From positions 36,686-100,685 of the IMG/VR virus record IMGVR_UViG_3300045988_149331: a stretch of 64,000 nucleotides of DNA. One strand, given 5' to 3'. Origin of the DNA: a virus. Of the stretch, positions 7,491 through 61,235 are shown in pieces (positions within the stretch are counted from its first letter, which is position 1; every line of letters starts with the position of its first letter). Position numbers and translations under genes: made by a program. Below the pieces are notes generated by a model. The model was given only the letters and a program-made list of their open reading frames with translations. It was not told the DNA's origin and did no database searches.

Positions 7491-7993
7491 AATCTTACTC
7501 GTGATTCATGGCCGTGTTTAACGGCAATTCTACCGTTGTTAAGGTCGATTTCAACGCTCTTATCGGTAAGTGCAACAACTTTTCCAGGCTTATAACAAAA
7601 CCCATTTTCAGCGTTCCCCAACTTGACGATAACAGCTCTGTACTTGGTGAGTTCGGAAAAGTCTTTGATCTTGATGGCTTCTTCGTCAAACATCTTTTTC
7701 CAAAACCACTCGATATCAGGCCAGAGGCGAACCTCTTCGTTAACCCCTAACGACGCTGTAATCGGCGCACCATTGGGGAACAAATTCACCTCACACTTAC
7801 CATCACTGACGCGTGATAGCGTACCGATGTTATACCTCACCTTCCCCTTATCATCCTTCACGCGAACGATGACTCGTACAGGGTAAGGCGGTGTTACCTT
7901 CAACGCGCTGTTAGCAGCGATTGTTGTGCCGATATGCCAAATCTTCTCAGCCTTCGCTGCTGACACGGCCCAAATTATTTTTCTTTGGTCCAT
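7481..7993 (-). CDS. hypothetical protein, two tandem SH3/Tudor-like beta-barrel repeats
   Basis: Two internal repeats of pattern V.V......G..Y..G.v....d...E..L..G.......e.vRLW. Confidence 0.5.
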   Translation of the reverse strand: MDQRKIIWAVSAAKAEKIWHIGTTIAANSALKVTPPYPVRVIVRVKDDKGKVRYNIGTLSRVSDGKCEVNLFPNGAPITASLGVNEEVRLWPDIEWFWKKMFDEEAIKIKDFSELTKYRAVIVKLGNAENGFCYKPGKVVALTDKSVEIDLNNGRIAVKHGHESRVRLWE

Positions 7994-8165
7994 CTTCCTT
8001 TAATTCTTTTACCGCCGCAGCCGTAGCGTCGGCGATGTATTTTAGTACATCGCCTAACGCAGCGGCGTTGTTGGCGTTCCATTCGCGGATAAACCGATCT
8101 TCGTACTGAGTAACGGTGGGGAATGGCGACGGCAAAAAGTGGGTATGTTTGGCGTTGTAAGGCAT
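7947..8165 (-). CDS. hypothetical small protein
   Basis: 72-aa ORF whose ATG overlaps the ART gene stop (TAATG at 8163-8167); 3' end overlaps next gene by 47 nt, so uncertain. Confidence 0.3.
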   Translation of the reverse strand: MPYNAKHTHFLPSPFPTVTQYEDRFIREWNANNAAALGDVLKYIADATAAAVKELKEDGPKKNNLGRVSSEG

Positions 8166-9919
8166 TACTCTTGTTTGCTATCTTCCGGCAACCATTCCAT
8201 TAAGACACGATTTCCTTCAATCTTATGGACCTTATAATTTTGGTCTCGGCCAATTAAAAATTCCCCCTCCTCTCCTCCGTAAACCCCTACTACTGGAGCA
8301 ACCGGGCAACCCGCGGGAGCGATAATATCAAAATACATAGTCCCCTCGTCGTTGCTAATTTCAGGATAACATGTAGTGCTCATGAACGACTTATCGCTGA
8401 ACACCTCCCCCTCCTTGAGATTTTTAACGAAATTATCTGCATCGTTTTCAAACGTAAGTTTCCTGTATAAAACGATATTTTGTCCCACTTTATTTTGAGA
8501 AATAAACGTATCAATTCCGTTTATGAATTTATCCATTTTATCAGACGATACATCGACTTTGTTGCCGTAAAGGTATTTTCTCATTACAGCAAAGTCAAGA
8601 TCATCATCTTCGTCAAAATCGTCATCATGGTCTGCGGAATATAAAACAATAGCTTTTACTGCATCCGAATCGCTTTCGTCCATGAAATCCTCATAAGCGT
8701 CAACAATCTTATCAAAGAATTCAGTTGCATCGTCGCTGTTTAATCGTATGAATTTTTCGCCGTTTATGTCCAACCCACTTTTCCGTAAAGCCCATTTGTA
8801 CGCTCTATCGGCCTTTTTGAGAACTTTTTCATTCGCCTTGTCAGAGGGTAATCGCTCAATGTTTTTCGCAGTACTGTCGCCTGATAATGAAATATTAAAA
8901 CGTTCATTATCTGCTTCAAATTTCTTTTGTTCTTCTGCTTTTTCCCTTTTAACATCCTCGCTTTTTACCCAAAAAGCGATAGCGTCGTCTTTTGTGTCTT
9001 CAGGCACGATATTATTTCTTTTCAAGACATCAATCGCCTTTTTAGATAATTCTTCGGGGGTTAATTTATACTTTGAATACTGTTCGTCGGTCTTTCGTAA
9101 TTTACTCAAAAAGATGCCAGCTATCGTCTTTGGTGTATCGCTACCTCGTACTTGATCCAGCAAATCTTTTTCGAATTTCTCATCAACGGCATCTTCGTCT
9201 TTATTGTCGTCATCCTTTTCACTACCCTCCCTGGCGTCAGGATCGCCGAACTTGGACGCGGCTCCCTCGACGTCAGCGATCTCCTTCACCGTCGTGGTCT
9301 CGAAATTGTCAACATCGGCGTAGGGGTATTTGTCCACGCGGTAGCCTTCGCTGGTCTTGGTGACTACCAGATCGAAGCCGTCTTCGTCGCCGCCGACCTG
9401 CTTGATGAACGCGTGAGAAGCGTCTTCGACTCCAGCGTACTGCTCCAGGTCCTGGTCGTCCATCTGACGGAAGCCCATGGACTCAAACGAGGCCGTCGCC
9501 TTGGCGTCACCGTCAGCCAGGCCGTTACGCAACGAGGCGTCGCCCTTCTTGTTCTTGGCGCGAACGTTCACGCCGCGGCGTTCGAGTTCTGCGGTGGCCA
9601 CCTTGCGCATTTCAGCGTCAGCCGACGGATCGTTAGCCACTTTCACCAACGCCTCCTCCGAAGCCGAGCGGGCATGATTCTGGAGGCTGACGTTGCCTCC
9701 GGGAACGCCACCTTCACCCCCCTCAGCCGCGGGGTCTTTCTCCTTGGCTGCGTGACCGTACTCCTGACCCACACGTTGCAAGCGGCGGTTTTGAGCGTTG
9801 TCGGTGTATACACCGTGACGCGCTTTTTCGATTTCTACCTCTTCAGTTTCGGGGATGTTGACGAACCCCTTGAGGATTTGCTGTCGTTTTGCCTCACCGT
9901 AGTTGATAATCTCTTTCAT
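8165..9919 (-). CDS. C3/VIP2-type ADP-ribosyltransferase domain protein (MuF-associated toxin-like)
   Basis: C-terminal R-STS-ExE triad: VLYRKL, SFMSTT, GEEGEFLIG; long acidic linker; N-terminal shared modules. Confidence 0.75.
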   Translation of the reverse strand: MKEIINYGEAKRQQILKGFVNIPETEEVEIEKARHGVYTDNAQNRRLQRVGQEYGHAAKEKDPAAEGGEGGVPGGNVSLQNHARSASEEALVKVANDPSADAEMRKVATAELERRGVNVRAKNKKGDASLRNGLADGDAKATASFESMGFRQMDDQDLEQYAGVEDASHAFIKQVGGDEDGFDLVVTKTSEGYRVDKYPYADVDNFETTTVKEIADVEGAASKFGDPDAREGSEKDDDNKDEDAVDEKFEKDLLDQVRGSDTPKTIAGIFLSKLRKTDEQYSKYKLTPEELSKKAIDVLKRNNIVPEDTKDDAIAFWVKSEDVKREKAEEQKKFEADNERFNISLSGDSTAKNIERLPSDKANEKVLKKADRAYKWALRKSGLDINGEKFIRLNSDDATEFFDKIVDAYEDFMDESDSDAVKAIVLYSADHDDDFDEDDDLDFAVMRKYLYGNKVDVSSDKMDKFINGIDTFISQNKVGQNIVLYRKLTFENDADNFVKNLKEGEVFSDKSFMSTTCYPEISNDEGTMYFDIIAPAGCPVAPVVGVYGGEEGEFLIGRDQNYKVHKIEGNRVLMEWLPEDSKQE

Positions 9920-26840: not shown

Positions 26841-26922
26841 CACCCGAGTTGCCGTTCCTATTTACACTCCCGAAACTGCCGACAATGGGCGAACTGCCAC
26901 AACATTCCGTCGGGTGAAAAAG

Positions 26923-26994
26923 TTGATCTGGAAGGGTTCGAACCTCCAATACGAGAACCAAAATCTCGTGTGTTGCCCATTACACCACAGATCA
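26923..26994 (-). tRNA. tRNA-Gln (anticodon UUG)
   Basis: Hand-folded cloverleaf: acceptor TGATCTG/CAGATCA, D stem GTGT/ACAC, anticodon stem CGAGA/TCTCG, loop TT-TTG-GT, T arm GGAGG-TTCGAAC-CCTTC, discriminator A; no encoded CCA. Confidence 0.85.
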
Positions 26995-53603: not shown

Positions 53604-56447
53604 CTACTGTAGTATTTCTAACCTTGTAGATGGACACGACTGGATGACCTTCTTGCCCGCAAAGAAATTAACGCGTCCTGATACAGCCACAACTCGGTTC
53701 AGCAGCGTCGCTTCAGTTTCAGGCTGGTATTTCCAAAAGTCAGCCCACAACGTGACTTGAACGATAAGGCTGTTGATTTCTACCTGCAATACGCCATACG
53801 TATCACCCCGCTTGGTTTGACGTTCGAATACGTTGTTAACACGCCCCACGATACACACCTCGTCACCTTCGTTTTTCTTCTCGAATTCAGGCGCAGTAAC
53901 GTACAGCCGAACCATCCGTTTTCCGAGACCATACTCGTTCAACATACGCGTGTAGTCCACTTCGCCATACCCGGTTATTTCGCGCTGTTTGAAGACCCAC
54001 CAAGCGTTAGTATGGGCATCGGGAGTAGCGAATTCTTCAGGCAGTTCTTCGCCCCGGCGTTCGAGATATTGTTTGACGATATCTAACCGTTGACGCGGGT
54101 TGCGTACTCCTTCTACAAGGTCGAACGCTCCGGCTGTTATCAACCGTAATACCACCGTGCGATTAACGCCCGTAGGGACTGACGTTATGAAGTCTTCGAA
54201 AGAAAACACCTCGCCGTGCTCAGCCTTCATTTGTTTGAGGAGCGTCAACGCCCGATCGCCGACGCCTTTAACCTTCCCCAGTGAGAAGAAGATACGATTG
54301 GTTTCAGGGTCGCAGGTAAACGTATCGCCCGAGAAATTGATATCCGGCGGACGCACCTCAATATCGACACCCGTCTTCTTCATTTCAACAAGCCGATACG
54401 GAATATCAGCCTCTTTGGAAGCGTACTGAAGCGACGTCGTCCAAAACTCCAACGGGTAGTTCACCTTAAACCACTGCGACCAGTACGACATCATGGTATA
54501 GGCCACGGCGTGAGAATTACACGTTACCACACCACCGTCAGTCAAAAACGTGTGTGACACGTTGCCGCTCACCTCCACGTCATAGACTTTTTCTTCACCT
54601 ACGCACTGAATATTGACGATTTCTTCCAATCGTGTTAACAATCCCTTTTCACCCATTCGGTGACGCGGTAGCGTTTCAAAGTGGATTTTCTTATGACACG
54701 AATTACAGAGCCACATCAGGTTGCTAACGTCATTATTCGCCCGATTCCCATCCATATGATGAGCCTCCATGCGTTTTCCCACTTTGCCGCACTTATCACA
54801 CGGGCATCCGGCGTGTTGGCGTTTGAAATTTTCAAAGTCAACGGTGGGATGATATTCTTGACGCTGGAATCCGCACTGACCCTTCGTAGGATAGTTTTGA
54901 GACCTACCACGTTGGAACGAATAATCCTTATTCGTTTCTTCGTATCCAGCCCAGATATACAATCGAGCACCAACTGCCAAACCGCTATCTATAGACATTT
55001 CACCCGCCGGTGTCGGGAAGCGGTGATTAGACGTACAGCGTATCTTTTCGCCGGAACGTACAGTGATTTCGTAAACCGGACGCACACCTTCAAAACGGAT
55101 GTCAACGATTTTATTACGAACCAACCTGCCTTCGTCGTTTAACGACCAGCACATTCCGTACCCTGAACGAATATACTTATCGCTTAACGATTCGTGAGAT
55201 AGCCATAAATCAGACGTGCGATTCTTTATTTCGTACATCTCTTCGATAGTGGGAGCATACGAACCGCGCGTAATACCTACGCGACGAATACGTTCCGAAC
55301 CTGCCAAGCACTTATTGAAGCCGTACGAAGCGAACGCCAGCATCTTCTCCCAGACTTCAGAGGCTTGTTCAACGGCTCGTTTTTCCGCAACTCCTTTTGA
55401 TTTTATCAAATTGGAATATCCGTTAACGAACTTTTCCTTGAATTGAGCTAAGGCTGTGTGATTCTTTTTCTTAATGTACGTACGACACTCGTCGGATTCG
55501 ATAGGCGTTAAACCTCCAACAACCATCGCTTTCATGATCTGCTCCTGGTAGGTGTACAACGAATAGGTATCACGAGTGATATCCTCCATCCCGGGGTCAA
55601 ACTTTGGCTTCTTGCGGCCGTTCTTTATATCGACAAACGTTTCGTGCGCCTTCACATCCATCGGGCCTGGTCGGAACAGTGCCGTCATAGCGATTAGGTC
55701 GTCGAGACTTTGAGGTTTAGCCTCGCGACAGTAATTCATCAGTCCCATGGCTCCAAACTGGAATACGTCTTCACACCACCCACGCTGGAAATAACGGTAA
55801 ACCTCTTCGTCGTTGAACGGAATGGCGTTAACGTCGATTTGCTCCCGACGGTTCTTGGCGATAAGTTTGATAATAGACGAGAACTTATCCAGCTGGTTAA
55901 GACCCAATATGTCCTCCTTCAAGAATCCGGACTTGTCAACATACTTGCCTTCCCACTCTGATACAAGCACATCGCCCATTTTCTTCATAGGCATCCACCC
56001 AAACAAGTCGATCGGGTTTCCATCCTCATCTTCCTGCGGTACAACAATGACCGCTGAGGGATGAATTGACGACGTTTTACACTGCGTAAGGGCGTATTTC
56101 GTCATATGGACCAACTCGGGGTGATCCTGCACAAAACGGAACAATTCACGCGATGTAGCTGCGTAGTTAAACAAGTCACCCCACGTGTACTCGATTTGGT
56201 CGTCGATGTCCTTGGTGAGTTTGTTCATTACCGCGAACGGCACGCCCATGACCTTGCCGAAATCCTTCAAACATGTCTTGAGTTTCATGCGGGTGTACGT
56301 ACCAACAGAGCACACATGATTGACGCCATAGCGTTTGGACATGTATTCCTTCACTGTATCCCGAAATGCAACAGGGAAATCGGCGTCCACGTCCGGCATG
56401 CTGTCCTGACGGGCAATTTCGACTTTTTCTATTTTTAGAATCTTCAT
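53604..56447 (-). CDS. dnaE: DNA polymerase III alpha (DnaE) C-terminal fragment: palm catalytic Asp pair onward, fingers, OB fold; contains an intein
   Basis: SMPDVDADF...TYTRMKLK..LKDFGKVMG collinear with E. coli SMPDFDVDF...TFGTMAAK..IRDVGRVLG; FRPGPMD; GFNK|SHAVAY split by intein. ATG 56447 overlaps the GIY-YIG stop (ATGA). Confidence 0.8.
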   Translation of the reverse strand: MKILKIEKVEIARQDSMPDVDADFPVAFRDTVKEYMSKRYGVNHVCSVGTYTRMKLKTCLKDFGKVMGVPFAVMNKLTKDIDDQIEYTWGDLFNYAATSRELFRFVQDHPELVHMTKYALTQCKTSSIHPSAVIVVPQEDEDGNPIDLFGWMPMKKMGDVLVSEWEGKYVDKSGFLKEDILGLNQLDKFSSIIKLIAKNRREQIDVNAIPFNDEEVYRYFQRGWCEDVFQFGAMGLMNYCREAKPQSLDDLIAMTALFRPGPMDVKAHETFVDIKNGRKKPKFDPGMEDITRDTYSLYTYQEQIMKAMVVGGLTPIESDECRTYIKKKNHTALAQFKEKFVNGYSNLIKSKGVAEKRAVEQASEVWEKMLAFASYGFNKCLAGSERIRRVGITRGSYAPTIEEMYEIKNRTSDLWLSHESLSDKYIRSGYGMCWSLNDEGRLVRNKIVDIRFEGVRPVYEITVRSGEKIRCTSNHRFPTPAGEMSIDSGLAVGARLYIWAGYEETNKDYSFQRGRSQNYPTKGQCGFQRQEYHPTVDFENFKRQHAGCPCDKCGKVGKRMEAHHMDGNRANNDVSNLMWLCNSCHKKIHFETLPRHRMGEKGLLTRLEEIVNIQCVGEEKVYDVEVSGNVSHTFLTDGGVVTCNSHAVAYTMMSYWSQWFKVNYPLEFWTTSLQYASKEADIPYRLVEMKKTGVDIEVRPPDINFSGDTFTCDPETNRIFFSLGKVKGVGDRALTLLKQMKAEHGEVFSFEDFITSVPTGVNRTVVLRLITAGAFDLVEGVRNPRQRLDIVKQYLERRGEELPEEFATPDAHTNAWWVFKQREITGYGEVDYTRMLNEYGLGKRMVRLYVTAPEFEKKNEGDEVCIVGRVNNVFERQTKRGDTYGVLQVEINSLIVQVTLWADFWKYQPETEATLLNRVVAVSGRVNFFAGKKVIQSCPSTRLEILQ
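54516..55310 (-). mobile_element. intein with HNH endonuclease domain in dnaE
   Basis: Begins CLAGSERI after GFNK, block B TSNH, HNH CDKCGK..HHMDGNRANN..LCNSCHKKIH, ends VVTCN followed by +1 Ser (SHAVAY); 265 aa. Confidence 0.8.
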
Positions 56448-57345
56448 TTCTTCCTTGGTTTCATTCCATACCAAAAACCGTCGGGGAGCGGACTGTCCTT
56501 CGGTATAACAGTATTTATTTCACCATTAGTTATTCTAACTTTGCCTTGCATAGGATTCGTGTATCCTTGTTCGTATTTTACGCGAAATTTTTCCCTTAAC
56601 GCCTGACGTTGTTCCGCCGACCAACGATTATTCCAATTCGGATTGTTCTCACCTGCATAGCGGCCCTTCATTTTGGCAGATAATTGCGCCTTTTGCTCCG
56701 GCGTCCAGTAATTACCGTAGTTTGGATTCTTTTCGCCGGCATATCGACCTTTTAAGGTTTGTGAAATTCTTTTCTTGTAATCGGTATTATCCAAAGTCAT
56801 TTGACGCTTTTGATGAATTCTTTTCATCACTTCCGGATGATCCTTGAATGTCTTTTTAAGCGAACGTGAAACTTTAGCCGCAACCTCTGGTATCAACACG
56901 GGCGAACCGCTTCCAAACTTATTCGCCGAACCCGGTAATATGTTGTAGCCAATCTTTTTATTGGCGGAATCGAATTTCTTGATGTAGAGCATCTCCCAGG
57001 CGTCGAGTTGTAGTTGAGTGTCGCAAATGCGAAGTGTTTCGCGCTTGAAGTTCTTTCGGCCGTAACGCTTAATCGCGTTCGTCAAAGATATGCCGCTACC
57101 TAAATAACCATCAAACTCATCCGTATCGCACCAGTGTTGGCCTATGTAAATTCTTCCATTAACGAGGTTTGTCGTTTTGTAAATTATACCTTGCATAAAG
57201 TCCGCAATTTATCAATATCAATGTCCAGATCTATATTTGACAAATCGCAGTCTATATCTATTTCCTCGCCATTACGAAGAGGAATTTTAGCGTTTTCGGG
57301 CAATCTAAACTTGCCATACCCCTCAATTTCCAAATCCCAAAATTT
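56394..57345 (-). mobile_element. 952-nt insertion splitting dnaE: candidate group I intron or free-standing HEG cassette
   Basis: Removing 56394-57345 joins ...FLNSNRVTVP to DVDADF..., gap-free against the E. coli RVSMPDFDVDF. The upstream exon would end in U (57346) and the insert would end in G (56394). Confidence 0.35.
56444..57196 (-). CDS. GIY-YIG homing endonuclease inside the dnaE interruption
   Basis: GIIYKTTNLVNGRIYIGQH...GSG; NUMOD3-like GEKNPNYG / GENNPNWN; C-terminal VRITNGEINTVI..PLPDGFWYG. Confidence 0.85.
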   Translation of the reverse strand: MQGIIYKTTNLVNGRIYIGQHWCDTDEFDGYLGSGISLTNAIKRYGRKNFKRETLRICDTQLQLDAWEMLYIKKFDSANKKIGYNILPGSANKFGSGSPVLIPEVAAKVSRSLKKTFKDHPEVMKRIHQKRQMTLDNTDYKKRISQTLKGRYAGEKNPNYGNYWTPEQKAQLSAKMKGRYAGENNPNWNNRWSAEQRQALREKFRVKYEQGYTNPMQGKVRITNGEINTVIPKDSPLPDGFWYGMKPRKK

Positions 57346-58887
57346 AGGAACCGTTACGCGATTAGAATTCAGAAATCGTTCGAACATTAAATCATATTTC
57401 AACGGGTCAACGTCCGTTATGTACAGGCAATATGCAATCAACGATCCGCACACTGAACCACGCCCCGACCCGGTCATGATACCCTGCTCGCGGCACCAGT
57501 TCATGATGTCCCAAAGGATCATGAAATAATCACATAGCCCGTTAGGAACGATAATGGCGCACTCCTTTTCGAGTTCATTCATATACTTATCCAGGTCATC
57601 GACCTTACCTACCAACCGCTCTTGAACGCCCTGTTCCAACTTTTCAAAGAAGGCGTCTTCAACCGTAGTTTTTACAAACTTGTATTTCGGAAGGTGACGA
57701 ATGCCCGTCGGTATCTCAAACTCAATAGTGTCCGTCAAAGTCGCTGTAAGGGTCATGCCATCAATTATCTTCTCGTAAAGGGGCGCGGCTACGTCCATCC
57801 ACTCTTCGTAGGCTAAAATCGTCTCTTTTGAGTTTTTGAAATACTGGGTCGAACTTTCGGCATTCACCACCCCAGCAACCTTATTCAGCAGGGCCTTCAG
57901 CGGAGCCTCTTCGCGATCAAGGTAATACGAGTCGTTGATGACGATAGGCAGCGTCTGGCAATAAGCCTTCATTTTCCGACAACGGCAGATGTAGGTGTCG
58001 ATAGCTTCCAGGTGAGCGCGGAATAACGCTTCGGATTCGAATTCGACGGTGTCGATCTGATAGTACACTTGATCGAACGCCGTGTGATACGCTTCCAGTA
58101 AAGCCTTGCACCGCTCGGCGTCGGACTTAAAGTAGTTCAGTTCGCTATCCGGCGGGATAACGCAGATCAGCCCGCGGCCAAGTTTATACAGTTCCTCGCT
58201 GGGGATGAAGCCTTGATAATCGACGTTTATGGCCTTATTCACCAACAGCAGGTTGCGCCACCCTTCAGGGCTGGTTACGTATAGTTTCAACGCGAAGGTT
58301 TCCTGTACGTCAGCCGCCTGGTCGTAGTTACACGCCACGGTCACAGTCTCGCCTATTATAGGCTTCAGCCCGTTATTCAAGCATGCGGTCTGAAAAGCCA
58401 GCGTTCCGGCCAAAGTGTTTCGGTCGCATATGCCGAGGGCCTTCATGCCGTTGAACTTGGCCTTGGCGGCCCATTCTTCGCAGTTTGACGAACCGTTCAA
58501 AAACTCATACTCGCTGTGAACGCCCAGATGAACGAACGGAACCAGTTCTTCGGCGGTTGCAGTGCCAAGGTACTTAAAATCACGGAACTCCGGGCGGAAC
58601 ACCACCGATTTATCCAACCGAAGATGATCTTTCTTGATGTTTGAATAGTAGAACTTACCGCCAAATTCGAACAGGATGTATTTTACAACCCCATCGTACA
58701 AGGCGTCGAACTCCGCCCCCGTCACCGCGAACGAGAAGCGTTGATCGATGATCTTGCCCTTATCGTCGGGGTGGAGGTACAAAAAGTCCCCCACGCCTTC
58801 GATAGCGATTATATTCAGTTCGTCGTCGCGCTTTTCTTCGATAGCCAGGTAGTTATCGTCGGCCCAGCGCCGTAATGCCTCAGTCAT
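57184..58887 (-). CDS. dnaE: DNA polymerase III alpha (DnaE) N-terminal fragment: PHP domain and start of palm
   Basis: PHP FVHLGVHSEYEFLNG...ALGICDRNTLAG; GRGSVCGSLIAYCLYITDVDPL..LMFERFLNSNRVTVP collinear with E. coli DnaE. The last 53 aa have no DnaE counterpart. Confidence 0.8.
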   Translation of the reverse strand: MTEALRRWADDNYLAIEEKRDDELNIIAIEGVGDFLYLHPDDKGKIIDQRFSFAVTGAEFDALYDGVVKYILFEFGGKFYYSNIKKDHLRLDKSVVFRPEFRDFKYLGTATAEELVPFVHLGVHSEYEFLNGSSNCEEWAAKAKFNGMKALGICDRNTLAGTLAFQTACLNNGLKPIIGETVTVACNYDQAADVQETFALKLYVTSPEGWRNLLLVNKAINVDYQGFIPSEELYKLGRGLICVIPPDSELNYFKSDAERCKALLEAYHTAFDQVYYQIDTVEFESEALFRAHLEAIDTYICRCRKMKAYCQTLPIVINDSYYLDREEAPLKALLNKVAGVVNAESSTQYFKNSKETILAYEEWMDVAAPLYEKIIDGMTLTATLTDTIEFEIPTGIRHLPKYKFVKTTVEDAFFEKLEQGVQERLVGKVDDLDKYMNELEKECAIIVPNGLCDYFMILWDIMNWCREQGIMTGSGRGSVCGSLIAYCLYITDVDPLKYDLMFERFLNSNRVTVPKFWDLEIEGYGKFRLPENAKIPLRNGEEIDIDCDLSNIDLDIDIDKLRTLCKV

Positions 58888-58888
58888 A

Positions 58889-60115
58889 CTACAAAATTGT
58901 ATTCGGGTCCGCGTTAGATAACCTTGCCGCGAAGAAATTGCGCGCCAGCATTAGGTAGTCCCAACGCGCATCGACTTGATAGTAACTCGGCATATAATCG
59001 ATGATCGAGATACTGCTTTTCAACAGCTGATCGCGATCCTCCGGCAGGCACCCACCGCGATTACGCTTATAGGAGATGTACGCCTTCAACAACTGATACA
59101 CGGCCGAAAAATATATCGACTTTTCATGGACGTATCGCTGGAATCCAGCCTCGTCTTCTGGATCGCCACCGTCGGCGTTACGGTTGAGCAGACGGGTGAT
59201 CATCTCCTCCAGGAATACAGTTATTTCACGCAGGCGGTTTACCGGCACCTCGGACTCGAAATCAAAGTCCATCATGTACGAAATAGCTTCGTTGTAAAGC
59301 CCCATTTGTGCCGAATTAACAGGATATTCGGCGTTGGTGAAAAGGTCGAACATCTTCTCGGTAATGTCGTTCCATTCGTAGACGTGAAGCGACTGCGAGT
59401 TATGAGTCTGAACACCCAACTCAATGCCCAGACACAGCGACATTATCTCCGTCAGGAACGAAAACTGGAAGATGTTCGTAGGGAGACCCCAGTGAAGGTC
59501 ATTCGAACGATTCTGGACCGTGGTAACGAGTTTACCGTCGCGAATTTTCAACATCACCATATCGTTACACGGCAGGTCCTTGGTCTTCACACCGAGGTCG
59601 AACTTGGGGTTCCAAATCGACATCACCACCTGCCGCGTATCAGGATCAGCCGACAGTAAGCGTATCGCCTCTGCAACCTGATCCAGTCCAGTATCGGCCG
59701 ACTCGCTTTCCGAAGCAATTCCCCAGTGGCGCAGGCGCCACCCGTAGGGAGCATGAAACGTTTCGCCGTTGTCCGAAAAGTCAGCCATCCGGCTATTGAA
59801 GATCGTCAGGAACTCAACGTCCTTACGACCCACGGCGATCCACATCGCTTCAGCCAGCAGGAAGAACACGTTGATATTACGACCGTACCCGCCCACGCAG
59901 CGGCGATAGGGGTTGGTGATAACGGTCTTCACGTCCAGCAGTTCGCGCACCTTTCCGCCACGTGAATTACGCCACGGCAGTTTACGTATCGTATCGTTGA
60001 TGTACGGATACAACTGGGCAAATGATCTGCGGGGATCGGTGACGTAAGTCGTTTGACTTTCAAGTTCACTGACTGAAACGCCATCAACGGACTTGGATAT
60101 TGTTTCTTCTTTCAT
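58889..60115 (-). CDS. divergent thymidylate-synthase-fold enzyme (candidate dUMP hydroxymethylase or thymidylate synthase) with long C-terminal extension
   Basis: FHAPYGWRLRHW, DPDTRQVVMSIWN, catalytic LPCN, NRSNDLHWGLPTNIFQF align with ThyA YGxQWR, DPDSRRxIxSAWN, PCH, QRSxDxxLGxPFNI; 408 aa versus about 264 for ThyA. Confidence 0.65.
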   Translation of the reverse strand: MKEETISKSVDGVSVSELESQTTYVTDPRRSFAQLYPYINDTIRKLPWRNSRGGKVRELLDVKTVITNPYRRCVGGYGRNINVFFLLAEAMWIAVGRKDVEFLTIFNSRMADFSDNGETFHAPYGWRLRHWGIASESESADTGLDQVAEAIRLLSADPDTRQVVMSIWNPKFDLGVKTKDLPCNDMVMLKIRDGKLVTTVQNRSNDLHWGLPTNIFQFSFLTEIMSLCLGIELGVQTHNSQSLHVYEWNDITEKMFDLFTNAEYPVNSAQMGLYNEAISYMMDFDFESEVPVNRLREITVFLEEMITRLLNRNADGGDPEDEAGFQRYVHEKSIYFSAVYQLLKAYISYKRNRGGCLPEDRDQLLKSSISIIDYMPSYYQVDARWDYLMLARNFFAARLSNADPNTIL

Positions 60116-60218: not shown

Positions 60219-61235
60219 CTATTTCTTAGCGGCTTTAGCTTTCTTGGCTGCGGCGGCTTTAGCCAGCGCGGCGCGAGCAGCGGCCTTGGGATCGGCCTTC
60301 GGTTCCTCGGCCTTGGGAGCGGGGGCTTCCTTCTTGGCGGTAGCCTTCAGATCGGCTTCCATCTTCTCGCGATTCTTGCCAAGACGGCTGTCGGTAGTCG
60401 AGACGGCGGCCTTGATGTCGGGGAGGTAGGTCTGAACGATTTCCATCGCATGTTCCCACGTGATGCCCTTGAGCCACGGCAGAGCGTTCCACGTCATTTC
60501 GAAATCGACACCGTCGTCGGCGAGTTTGTCCTGAGCAGCCTGACTGCGGAACGTGTTCAGAACGACGTTGGTCGTGGCGAAATTGCCGTCCTTCGAGTAC
60601 ACGTTCTCGAACATGATGGCCACGGGTTTCGAGTTGGCGCCGCCGTACTTGATCGAGATACCCTGCGACACGGCCACGTACTGGAACTCCTTCTCGGGGA
60701 AGAACTTGACCAGAGCCTTGCGGAGCAGGTCCATGTGCTCCGGAACGGTCTGCGGCTTCAAGCGAGTACCGCGTTCGCTGTTACGAGGCTTCTTGGCCTT
60801 GGCGGGCTTGATCTCCTTGGCGCCTTTAGCGGGCTTGGGTTCCTTCGGTTCCTTGGGTGCGGCTTTGGGGGCAGCGGCTTTCTTCTTCGGCGCAGGGGCC
60901 GGAGCCTCTTCTTCAGGCTCGGCCTCCGGTTCCGGCTCCTCTTCAGGCTCGGGTTCTGCCTCAGCCTCCTCTTCGGCGGCCTCATCGGCGAGTTCATCGG
61001 CCTGCTGTTCAGCCGGAGTGGCTTCTGCCTCGGGGGCGGCAGCCTCCTCGCCTTCCAGTTCGGCGAACGAACCGACGATGTCGATCAGGTTATCGATGGT
61101 TTCGTCGTCCATCCCCGGGATGCCGGCGTCTTCGAGCCGCTTGAGGAGAATCTCCTTGGCGGCCTCTTCGGTCTTTGCCTCGATGCCAAGTTTCTTCAAG
61201 CGCTCGGCGTTTACTTTCGAAATTTTAGTTGCCAT
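60219..61235 (-). CDS. hypothetical protein with acidic E/P/A and basic K/A low-complexity regions
   Basis: 338-aa ORF; AEPEPEEEPEPEAEPEEE linker, C-terminal AAAAKKAKAAKK. Confidence 0.5.
   Translation of the reverse strand: MATKISKVNAERLKKLGIEAKTEEAAKEILLKRLEDAGIPGMDDETIDNLIDIVGSFAELEGEEAAAPEAEATPAEQQADELADEAAEEEAEAEPEPEEEPEPEAEPEEEAPAPAPKKKAAAPKAAPKEPKEPKPAKGAKEIKPAKAKKPRNSERGTRLKPQTVPEHMDLLRKALVKFFPEKEFQYVAVSQGISIKYGGANSKPVAIMFENVYSKDGNFATTNVVLNTFRSQAAQDKLADDGVDFEMTWNALPWLKGITWEHAMEIVQTYLPDIKAAVSTTDSRLGKNREKMEADLKATAKKEAPAPKAEEPKADPKAAARAALAKAAAAKKAKAAKK

Follow-up and report, generated by a model that had tools for sequence, protein, structure and literature searches.

The window analysed here, a 64,000-nucleotide stretch of the IMG/VR virus record IMGVR_UViG_3300045988_149331, carries dnaE as two minus-strand fragments with a GIY-YIG endonuclease gene between them (Table 1). 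The three open reading frames lie where a sequence-only reading had placed them, at 57184-58887 (567 aa), 56444-57196 (250 aa) and 53604-56474. The last of these, as listed by the program, is TTG-initiated; its conserved start is the ATG at 56447, and homologues of the C-fragment begin at MKILKI. The N-fragment has a clade-specific N-terminal region ahead of its PHP domain and matches Pfam PHP (3e-17) and DNA_pol3_alpha (8e-33, model positions 5-109), while the C-fragment matches DNA_pol3_alpha positions 98-260, the finger domain and HHH_6, with the catalytic PDVDADF at 56376-56396. Against E. coli Pol III alpha, the N-fragment aligns over residues 6-402 (E 2e-35) and the C-fragment over residues 395-759 (E 9e-38), starting RQDSMPDVDADF to ERVSMPDFDVDF; the fragments therefore overlap on the reference. 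The cut does fall just before the PDxDxDF motif, as first reported, but the exact, gap-free join RVTVP-DVDADF proposed with it does not survive this overlap. A separate element within the C-fragment, the HNH intein, is also present in L009, L012 and L018; L003, L005 and most of the remaining loci lack it at this site.

Table 1. Features of the split dnaE locus in the window
Feature	Position	Strand	Description
dnaE N-fragment ORF	57184..58887	minus	567 aa; PHP, then the initial palm segment with GRGSVCGS
Mobile cassette (tail, endonuclease, leader)	~56403..57354	minus	949-952 nt; from codon alignments with unsplit relatives
Tail	57187..57354	minus	56 codons (TVPKFWDLEIEGYGKFRLPENAKIPLRNGEEIDIDCDLSNIDLDIDIDKLRTLCKV), in frame with the N-fragment; left part of the cassette
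Seg-like GIY-YIG homing endonuclease with NUMOD3 repeats	56444..57196	minus	250 aa; free-standing
Leader	56403..56447	minus	15 codons (MKILKIEKVEIARQD), opening the C-fragment; right part of the cassette
dnaE C-fragment ORF	53604..56447	minus	947 aa including the 265-aa intein; leader, PDVDADF, remaining palm, fingers, HhH
HNH-containing intein	54516..55310	minus	265 aa, precise insertion at GFNK|SHA (C1 ... CN|S); separate element in the C-fragment; Pfam Intein_splicing, HNH, HNH_3

The assignment of the intervening gene as a GIY-YIG endonuclease is borne out by its match to PHROG 314 'homing endonuclease' (4e-32) and by a NUMOD3 score above the Pfam cut-off (26.3 bits against 20.4), alongside SegE_GIY-YIG (24.2) and GIY-YIG (18.8). 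The protein is about 30% identical to T4-like seg genes. Its start overlaps the end of the N-fragment by 13 nt, with the ATG at 57196 lying 10 nt before the N-fragment stop, and its own stop and the C-fragment ATG share the sequence ATGA; both arrangements are as originally described. Homologous endonucleases occupy the same position in other split loci at 38-98% identity and across tail types, which suggests long co-residence. The gene is truncated in L009, decayed in L065, and deleted in L016 and L017, where its last codons are retained.

Codon alignment with the unsplit alleles of L015, L018, L020 and L027 defines the cassette boundaries. Unsplit close relatives read RV-SGERAKSAD-S[LM]PDIDxDF; thus the common sequence runs to the RV codon (57355) and picks up again at GAC AGC, 'DS' (56405). 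The cassette replaces the 24-nt linker (SGERAKSA) of these alleles, turning RV-SGERAKSA-DSLPD into RV, a 56-aa tail with its stop, the endonuclease, and a 15-aa leader ending in D ahead of SMPD. The last leader codon (D) is common to the linker of unsplit alleles. The DnaE homology of the N-fragment stops at the RV codons, 57355-57360, and the insertion lies in the loop that leads from the RV of FERFLNxxRV to the catalytic strand (D)SMPDxDxDF. Comparison with uninterrupted relatives thus upholds an insertion but shifts its edges. The block earlier placed at 56394-57345 spans about 56403/56406-57354, its junction having been 9-12 nt (3-4 codons) off on each side; 'TVP', taken as the counterpart of 'SMP', is the start of the tail; and the tail and leader, given as 53 and 27 aa, measure 56 and 15 aa (MKILKIEKVEIARQD).

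The cassette and its surroundings have discordant similarities. The cassette is 99% identical to those of L007, L008 and L010, and the downstream 1 kb is 96% identical, whereas the N-fragment bodies of these loci are only 80% identical to that of the window, which in turn is 93% identical (DNA) to unsplit L015. The switch point falls at 57355-57414, the 60 nt immediately upstream of the cassette. Within the window's own clade, tail, endonuclease and leader are gained or missing as one block relative to unsplit genes that are 86-97% identical. Judged from these comparisons, the cassette is mobile; the mosaicism is directly visible, and cleavage is its presumed source.

The tail and leader are protein-coding and under strong purifying selection. 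Between the window and L003, the tail shows 21 synonymous and 4 non-synonymous changes (dN/dS 0.02) and the leader 4 and 0; between L059 and L065 the tail shows 14 and 1, and tail dN/dS ranges over 0.01-0.02. The tail is acidic and predicted to be strand-rich, with a terminal strand motif h-D-h-D-h-D-x-x-L, and the leader is basic and shows strand-like alternation; net charge runs from -3 to -10 in tails and from 0 to +5 in leaders (11 pairs). There are 85 distinct homologous tails, and MK[IV]xK[IV]...D leaders are kept in 21 distinct C-fragment homologues and all split loci. AF2 predicts four short strands for the tail (pLDDT 55-79). In an AF2 model of an artificial N+C concatenation, the tail reaches pLDDT 55-69 and its acidic last 22 residues stay below 50; at this low to moderate confidence no tail-leader pairing was readable. 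The two peptides probably act as a complementary association module that clamps the polymerase halves together.

The split is a conserved trait of a large phage clade and outlasts loss of the endonuclease. The 80 IMG/VR loci examined comprise 30 split, 49 unsplit and one unresolved. Homologues of the N-fragment fall into more than 100 clusters (551-567 aa, 98-100% coverage); at 45-89% identity, those of about 555-567 aa all have a tail. The split form with intact ORFs is kept over 45-99% identity, and every lineage has its stop and start codons in precise arrangement. Four loci (L004, L041, L044 and L052) are split with no intervening gene; the 41-45-nt gap from N-fragment stop to PD motif corresponds to the leader alone, and in L004 the N-fragment stop and C-fragment start overlap as ATGA. 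Gaps in L059 and L063, at 46 and 53 nt, exceed the leader-only gaps by 1-8 nt. In L078 and L079, a GH16 gene takes the place of the endonuclease.

These observations make it very probable that dnaE is truly a gene in pieces and encodes a polymerase of two subunits, an arrangement that a homing-endonuclease cassette created and spreads. The second model of the sequence-only reading, a split polymerase with a free-standing endonuclease and coupled ORFs, gains support from the endonuclease-free splits and the selected tail and leader. The cassette gives the upstream half an acidic, in-frame tail of 56 aa and its stop codon, and the downstream half a start codon with a 15-aa basic leader, with the endonuclease gene between. 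As the overlapping stop and start codons suggest, one transcript would be read as three ORFs, and the halves would be joined by neither RNA nor protein splicing. The polymerase would then be a non-covalent heterodimer with a composite active site, in which GRGSxxGS of the N-piece would correspond to the triphosphate-binding part of the Pol-beta-like palm and the PDxDxDF aspartates of the C-piece would bind metals. The endonuclease presumably cuts cassette-free alleles, repair would copy the whole heterologous block with short flanks, and the split itself outlives decay or deletion of the endonuclease. Enzymes are known to stay functional when split in the cases of NrdA, gp43 and topoisomerase (PMC2988022).

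An unlikely alternative is that dnaE was anciently a two-gene system with the tail-leader module, unrelated to inteins or mobility, and that the endonuclease landed later. The 'SAHH-tail' clade (48-52% identity) contains only split loci, often endonuclease-free and with cleanly abutting ORFs, and the GH16 cases show that the gap can hold a non-endonuclease gene; intergenic insertion is also typical of free-standing endonucleases (PMC2988022). However, the all-or-none presence of the block in the window's clade, its discordance with the backbone, and the homology of the site endonucleases across tail types all speak against this order. The alternative differs from the main explanation solely in the order of events, and the two-subunit mechanism fits both.

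Very unlikely is an active split intein, with the tail as IntN, the leader as IntC and the halves trans-spliced to a covalent DnaE. The order half gene, free-standing endonuclease, half gene is that of fractured genes, DnaE loci among them (PMC2677866), and the tail is weakly similar to split-intein N-fragments in sequence and fold: it matches the C-terminal half of such fragments weakly (hhalign P about 3e-5), and they are also its top Foldseek matches. Tail and leader together bear a weak resemblance to the central part of a split intein, yet they total 71 aa, whereas reported IntN alone measures 88-105 aa (PMC2677866). Tails open with T, E, K, C, R, S, G or A, which leaves no conserved Cys/Ser at their first position; PENA or RDGD replaces the block B TxxH; the leader lacks His-Asn, and the next residue is S, M, L, T or V. 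Pfam intein models give no match to the cassette peptides.

The sequence-only reading also offered a group I intron, in which an element carrying the GIY-YIG ORF is removed by RNA splicing and translation yields one contiguous DnaE; this is now rejected as extremely improbable. Phage group I introns do host such endonucleases, I-TevI in td being one (PMC2988022), the annotation 'group I intron endonuclease' is attached to some T4-like homologues of the present enzyme, and the proposed boundary bases fit, 57346 being T (U in RNA) and 56394 G, as noted earlier. But Rfam returned no Intron_gpI or other match at E<=10, either on 55800-58000 or on the endonuclease-deleted L016. The proposed exon junction differs from the real homology boundary, only about 50 nt lie 3' of the endonuclease stop, and the selected tail is a translated peptide. 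The same split with leader-only or nearly leader-only spacing leaves no room for an intron in L004-type relatives, where no gene intervenes and, in L004, stop and start overlap. A decaying pseudogene in a phage that replicates with another polymerase is scarcely credible: an interrupted catalytic region, an added intein and a mobile-element load that can go with decay would suit it, but the halves retain all DnaE motifs examined (GRGSVCGS, PDVDADF, YGFNK) and the full Pfam domain set, ORFs are intact across the more than 100 clusters, codons are precisely arranged in every lineage, and purifying selection reaches even the tail.

The cyanobacterial DnaE, reportedly described by Wu et al. in 1998 with a naturally split DnaE intein, is the same enzyme (Pol III alpha) in two pieces. 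Its Npu/Ssp IntN chains, in PDB 2keq and 4kl5, are the tail's best remote matches. There, however, the two genes are at separate loci, no endonuclease intervenes, and a true trans-splicing intein restores the covalent chain; the insertion site also differs (PMC2677866). Fractured genes, intein-less ones included, were described by Dassa et al. 2009 (PMC2677866). Their split inteins surround a free-standing GIY-YIG or Vsr-like endonuclease, at three DnaE loci among others, in the identical order of N-part plus peptide, endonuclease, and peptide plus C-part; phage-like replication genes are hit, the added peptides have complementary charge, and their IntN is weakly similar to the tail. Here, unlike there, all five splicing residues are missing, the peptides measure 56 and 15 aa against 88-105 aa for IntN, and the halves cannot be ligated. 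An intein-less case is mentioned in that paper, but a conserved non-splicing association module is not described there.

In Aeromonas phage Aeh1 nrdA/mobE, as summarized from Friedrich et al. 2007 in PMC2988022, a free-standing endonuclease likewise sits in a functionally critical region of an essential gene of nucleotide or DNA metabolism that is contiguous in related phages. Two ORFs in one operon yield non-covalently reassembling products, and overlapping start and stop codons suggest translational coupling. By that account, Aeh1 involves an HNH enzyme (mobE), NrdA and a single phage, whereas the present case involves a GIY-YIG enzyme, a C-family polymerase and a large clade, and its split travels with an oppositely charged, conserved tail-leader pair and outlives endonuclease loss. 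A family B replicative DNA polymerase encoded by two genes, which in one case flank a seg-like GIY-YIG gene, is similar in that the endonuclease could be the cause of the split or a later invader. Its halves co-purify and are active; its split position differs, its genes are separated by 2-3 kb or by an untranslated spacer, and no tail-leader module is reported. The T4 td / I-TevI group I intron shares the endonuclease superfamily, the modular NUMOD DNA-binding architecture and a target in conserved, catalytically important coding sequence; unlike td, the cassette has no ribozyme core and no splicing, and its flanks are translated.

Two variants among the relatives bear on the tail-leader module. 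A second split site, in L018, holds a paralogous endonuclease with only a 14-aa tail and a leader of about 10 aa; no charge-paired module is found in these short extensions, so such a module is not strictly required for a split polymerase. In P0099 and P0150, tail-like and leader-like segments are naturally fused in frame, which indicates that the module is tolerated as a single insertion in that loop.

Two minus-strand ORFs in the window encode the halves of phage dnaE, the gene for Pol III alpha, and an endonuclease gene lies between them (see table). According to Pfam and the E. coli alignment, the PHP domain, a Pol-beta-like palm with GS and PDxDxDF, the fingers and HhH are all present, distributed over two ORFs. 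By this domain set, the halves together make up a C-family replicative polymerase. Pfam DNA_pol3_alpha is matched at positions 5-109 of 260 in the N-fragment and 98-260 in the third ORF, and the conserved catalytic motifs are divided: the N-piece carries GRGSVCGS, the C-piece PDVDADF. Both dnaE ORFs are under selection, as are the tail that extends the N-fragment and the leader that opens the C-fragment. The sequence-only reading correctly placed the endonuclease ATG (57196) 10 nt ahead of the N-fragment stop and the C-fragment ATG (56447) in an ATGA overlap with the endonuclease stop; the three ORFs may be translationally coupled. Megablast of the region found no close cultured relative among GenBank phages, and the best protein matches are DnaE proteins of Bacteroidota phages, ~32% identical.

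Features of the dnaE locus, its relatives and its surroundings (window coordinates unless a related locus is named)
Feature	Coordinates	Strand	Description
N-fragment ORF	57184-58887	minus	567 aa; PHP and first palm part
Endonuclease ORF	56444-57196	minus	250 aa; GIY-YIG with NUMOD3 repeats
C-fragment ORF, as called	53604-56474	minus	rest of palm, finger, HhH, HNH intein
Intein	54516-55310	minus	265 aa with HNH nuclease, in C-fragment
Second dnaE split site	L018 8592-9460		gap with paralogous GIY-YIG/NUMOD3 gene, 292 aa; DnaE proteins P0021-P0023, P0033 (~850 aa) split there too
Thymidylate-synthase-family gene	58889-60115	minus	408 aa, immediately upstream of dnaE; PF00303 in syntenic L001, L003, L004
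Acidic / repeat ORF	60219-61235	minus	338 aa; low-complexity acidic stretch, then Ala/Lys/Pro-rich repeats
tRNA-Gln, anticodon TTG	26922-26994	minus	sole tRNA gene of the 64-kb window

The junction was located by codon alignment of the window with the unsplit loci L015, L018, L020 and L027. Shared sequence stops just after the RV codon (57355) and restarts at GAC AGC (56405), so a heterologous block of 949-952 nt (~56403-57354) substitutes for a 24-nt SGERAKSA linker. Unsplit clade members read FERFLNETRV-SGERAKSAD-S[LM]PDIDxDF at this point. The homologues of the C-fragment start at MKILKI; its true start is ATG 56447, which gives a leader of 15 aa. Against E. coli Pol III alpha, the N-fragment aligns to residue 402 and the C-fragment from residue 395, so the pieces overlap on this reference and do not abut. 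The codon alignment thus bears out the split itself, as noticed in the sequence-only reading, and corrects the boundaries given there along with the supposed gap-free RVTVP-DVDADF join. TVP forms the first residues of the 56-aa tail, and E. coli SMP corresponds to the SMP that directly follows the leader; the apparent join is a coincidence of sequence.

Uninterrupted relatives are close at hand: L015, L018-L021, L023 and L027 are contiguous here, with 86-97% amino acid identity over residues 1-512, and the L015-type allele contains CGTGTGTCGGGTGAACGTGCCAAGTCTGCAGACAGCCTACCAGAT at the cassette site. All unsplit clade members, these loci and ~40 others, carry at this point a highly conserved 9-aa linker, SGERAKSAD. 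It has no counterpart in E. coli (RV-SMPD) or in the homologue P0197 (RVTVSLPD), and its final D is the same D that ends every leader. The linker may be a deletion scar of the cassette element.

An active split intein would fit the gene order, since host-gene halves lie on one strand with a free-standing endonuclease between them, as in the fractured genes described by Dassa et al. (PMC2677866), DnaE loci among them. The locus shares this order with fractured genes and differs in the intein parts themselves. In split inteins and fractured genes, the N-terminal part (IntN) spans ~88-105 aa, begins with Cys or Ser and carries a block B TxxH, and the C-terminal part (IntC) of split inteins ends in His-Asn, with Cys, Ser or Thr as the +1 nucleophile (PMC2677866). 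The tails are 50-57 aa long in the loci examined, begin with T, E, K, C, R, S, G or A, and read PENA or RDGD at the TxxH position. The leaders, mostly 13-15 aa (up to 19), end in D, lack His-Asn and are followed by S, M, L, T or V. None of 235 homologues has a full IntN, or a full IntC (~35 aa with HN and nucleophile), at this site, and 17 tail-plus-leader sequences gave no Pfam intein or Hint family at E<=10, only scattered weak matches. An active split intein is rejected on the variable first tail residue, the missing TxxH and His-Asn, and a combined tail and leader of 71 aa in the window.

A group I intron, one of two models in the sequence-only reading, fails on RNA, spacing and coding evidence. 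The Intron_gpI covariance scan proposed there for the junction gave no match at E<=10: cmscan with permissive filters found no RF00028 in window 55800-58000, only chance matches to unrelated families. No credible Rfam family was found at 7300-8000 of L016, a natural variant from which the endonuclease is deleted. In L004, L041, L044 and L052, 41-45 nt separate the N-fragment stop from the PDxDxDF motif, which is the leader alone. In L059 and L063 the gaps are 46 and 53 nt, 1-8 nt beyond the leader, and in L004 the N-fragment stop and C-fragment start overlap as ATGA. These arrangements leave no space for a ribozyme. Moreover, tail and leader evolve as protein. The tail shows 21 synonymous and 4 non-synonymous changes between the window and L003 (dN/dS 0.02) and 14 and 1 between L059 and L065, with dN/dS of 0.01-0.02 in the pairs compared; the leader shows 4 and 0. 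Both are conserved as peptides among backbones 45-99% identical. The other model, a genuinely split polymerase, is accepted as very probably correct. A ribosomal frameshift or hop joining the ORFs of relatives with an ATGA overlap is unnecessary, and it is inapplicable where a 750-nt endonuclease gene lies between the halves.

The split is widespread in this phage group. More than 100 clusters of N-fragment homologues (45-89% identity, 551-567 aa) each carry a homologous tail, yielding 85 distinct tail and 21 distinct leader sequences. Among 80 IMG/VR loci compared at the PDxDxDF site, 30 are split, 49 are unsplit and one was left unassigned. Gap content could be read in 26 of the 30 split loci. 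A homologous endonuclease occupies 15 of these gaps (38-98% identity, one copy truncated) and a decayed remnant one; two have lost the endonuclease and kept its final codons. In five, the gap is hardly or not longer than the leader, with N and C ORFs abutting or nearly so. Two gaps hold a GH16 glycosidase gene, and the last is 883 nt long. These gap contents trace the familiar cycle in which a homing endonuclease is gained, decays and is lost, and the split outlives it.

The two glycosidase loci are similar in layout: L078 has a 243-aa glycosyl hydrolase family 16 gene (7686-8417, Pfam 1.5e-13) between the dnaE halves, and L079 has the same arrangement. In both, unrelated cargo has landed at the split junction in place of an endonuclease. 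P0099 (892 aa) and P0150 (partial) carry a single ~51-aa insertion between RV and DSMPD, in which a tail-like segment runs in frame into a leader-like one, without the tail's terminal acidic strand and stop codon and without the leader start. These natural fusions place the tail-leader module in a loop that tolerates it. Other C-fragment homologues (P0172-P0211, 35-44% identical) differ in their starts. Many are ~645-660 aa long and begin ME(E/Q)RYG…, about 15-20 aa past the PDxDxDF motif, and others start just ahead of a degenerate motif (SEIDTDF, ELDIDTDV). They may reflect recurrent splits near PDxDxDF in other phage lineages, or gene-calling artefacts.

The gene in the gap belongs to the Seg / I-TevI type of GIY-YIG homing endonucleases, a class defined here by a GIY-x10-YIG motif, by Arg, Glu and Asn residues further downstream and by DNA-binding modules of the NUMOD kind. 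Its sequence reads GIIY-x10-YIG, and NUMOD3 scores 26.3 bits (cut-off 20.4) in Pfam; the SegE_GIY-YIG and GIY-YIG models fall just under their cut-offs, with 24.2 of 25 and 18.8 of 22.6 bits. Among PHROGs it hits family 314, 'homing endonuclease', at 4e-32, and seg-type genes from T4-like phages share ~30% identity with it. Another SegE-like GIY-YIG/NUMOD3 gene lies between dnaB and dnaG in the relatives L001 and L002 (502-1203), and this phage group generally has many free-standing endonucleases in its replication module.

Cassette and backbone differ in their closest relatives. The N-fragment body of the window has 93% DNA identity with the unsplit L015. L007, L008 and L010 share 99% identity with the window over the cassette and 96% over the 1 kb that follows it, and just 80% over the N-fragment body. 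Similarity switches inside the final 60 nt ahead of the cassette (57355-57414), as expected if the endonuclease had initiated gene conversion and a short tract upstream had been co-converted. The cassette block thus appears horizontally mobile. Judging by this discordant identity, the endonuclease would cut an endonuclease-less allele, into which the cassette would home.

The two halves probably assemble non-covalently into a heterodimer that has a composite active site, and tail and leader would clamp them together. Reassembly into an active enzyme is suggested by the conserved halves and catalytic motifs. In 11 of 11 pairs the tail is acidic (net charge -3 to -10) and the leader carries 0 to +5 (basic), and both have alternating strand-like patterns. 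The tail has no match in PHROGs. AlphaFold2 on an artificial N+C concatenation gave pLDDT 80 and pTM 0.75 overall, with a low-confidence leader; the tail reached pLDDT 55-69, with its last 22 residues <50, and no tail-leader contacts were readable. Owing to this low tail pLDDT, the clamp stays inferred. Modelled alone, the 71-aa module reached pLDDT 68 with a helix at the junction, probably an artefact of the artificial fusion. A Pol-beta-like palm holds the incoming triphosphate through its GS element and metals through its DxD strand. This assignment follows the structures established for Pol III alpha (PDB 2hnh, 2hpi). With the GS element and the metal-binding aspartates on separate polypeptides, the locus puts to a stringent test how firmly such pieces have to be joined.

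Where the module came from is a separate question, with no effect on the main conclusion of a split gene. A tail-plus-leader profile against PDB matched split inteins (Npu and Ssp DnaE, gp41-1) at E 0.1-0.9, in every case within the C-terminal half of IntN, and Tudor-type hairpins at E 0.01. In hhalign, 46 tails matched six split inteins over 59 columns (Prob 75%, P 2.6e-5), and the alignment stays collinear across the point where IntN and IntC are split. One of 300 column shuffles attained this score, and a reversed decoy scored 12 vs 32. The six-intein set comprised gp41-8, NrdJ-1, IMPDH-1 and Ssp DnaE together with the PDB-checked gp41-1 and Npu; the two checked sequences alone gave the same outcome (Prob 73%, P 3e-5). 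Foldseek with the module model returned two Npu IntN chains, 4lx3_A and 4qfq_A, as top matches (E ~1.5, rmsd 2.2-2.6 Å over 42-45 columns). These weak lines converge, and the chances that the module descends from an intein are roughly even.

Under the 'capture and collapse' model for split inteins, the acidic second half of IntN and a basic IntC associate first, electrostatically. A tentative reading, which we hold slightly less likely to be right than wrong, is that the module is the remnant 'capture' segment of an ancestral split intein, now a non-covalent clamp in a portable gene-splitting cassette with the endonuclease. What was kept would be IntN's acidic C-terminal half and the basic strand that opens IntC, with both catalytic ends lost. 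Such a cassette would let a free-standing homing endonuclease settle in an essential polymerase at its catalytic centre and leave the enzyme alive, and a stable two-subunit enzyme would remain after endonuclease loss. The P0099 and P0150 fusions and the SGERAKSAD linker would then be successive decay scars of one element. Oppositely charged interacting strands were also noted by Dassa et al. (PMC2677866).

The dnaE gene of this phage carries a further insertion. An intein with an HNH nuclease sits exactly at YGFNK|SHA in the C-fragment, starting CLAG and ending TCN|S. It is present in L009, L012 and L018 and lacking in most relatives, including the 99%-similar L005, so this dnaE is home to two mobile elements that are independent of each other. 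A second split site lies ~25 aa ahead of YGFNK in some relatives whose PDxDxDF site is unsplit. The endonuclease in this gap in L018 is nearly identical to that of the window in its catalytic domain and different in its C-terminal DNA-binding part. The extensions there are a 14-aa tail, ADLLMNLDKKKEQV, and a ~10-aa leader, MGLSRKEAEK, with no comparable charge-paired module, which suggests that the module is helpful, not obligatory. P0091 (612 aa) is unsplit at the PD motif; after …DDQIEYT it diverges abruptly into CHLSASMYETTLALKDYVDSQIGAVLNEQF, then a stop. This could be a third dnaE interruption site or an assembly artefact.

Among known systems, the locus resembles the genes-in-pieces Aeh1 nrdA/mobE, phage 25 gp43 and T4 topoisomerase. 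An essential gene is split in the window and contiguous in related phages, and a free-standing endonuclease occurs sporadically at the split, as intact, truncated, decayed or deleted copies. By analogy, the locus would work mechanistically like endonuclease-created genes-in-pieces (PMC2988022), for which the reassembly of the split enzymes is a stated open question. New here is the combination of three aspects: a C-family replicative polymerase divided just ahead of the catalytic aspartates; a tail and leader that are conserved, complementary in charge and non-splicing and that move with the endonuclease as one cassette; and a split that persists and diversifies across a large uncultured phage clade. 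The literature searched gave no account of this split phage DnaE, nor of non-splicing intein remnants acting as clamps.

This one gene family offers a natural series, from unsplit genes through in-frame module fusions to splits with an intact, decayed or absent endonuclease or a cargo gene, and its distinct tails and leaders provide material for co-variation analysis. If the module is intein-derived, the locus would record how a trans-splicing intein can evolve into a module for non-covalent dimerisation, and might supply small orthogonal charge-zipper tags for protein engineering. Annotation pipelines would label the locus 'DnaE fragment / hypothetical protein / DnaE fragment', which recognition of the cassette corrects.

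Two further genes of the window also deserve mention. Typical ThyA is much shorter than the 408 aa of the thymidylate-synthase-family protein, which might be a pyrimidine hydroxymethylase-type enzyme and a hint of modified DNA bases. The 338-aa ORF, whose synteny is conserved in relatives with no Pfam match on record for them, contains AAPKAAPKEPKEPKPAKGAKE and KAAAAKKAKAAKK and resembles a histone-H1-like DNA-binding tail.
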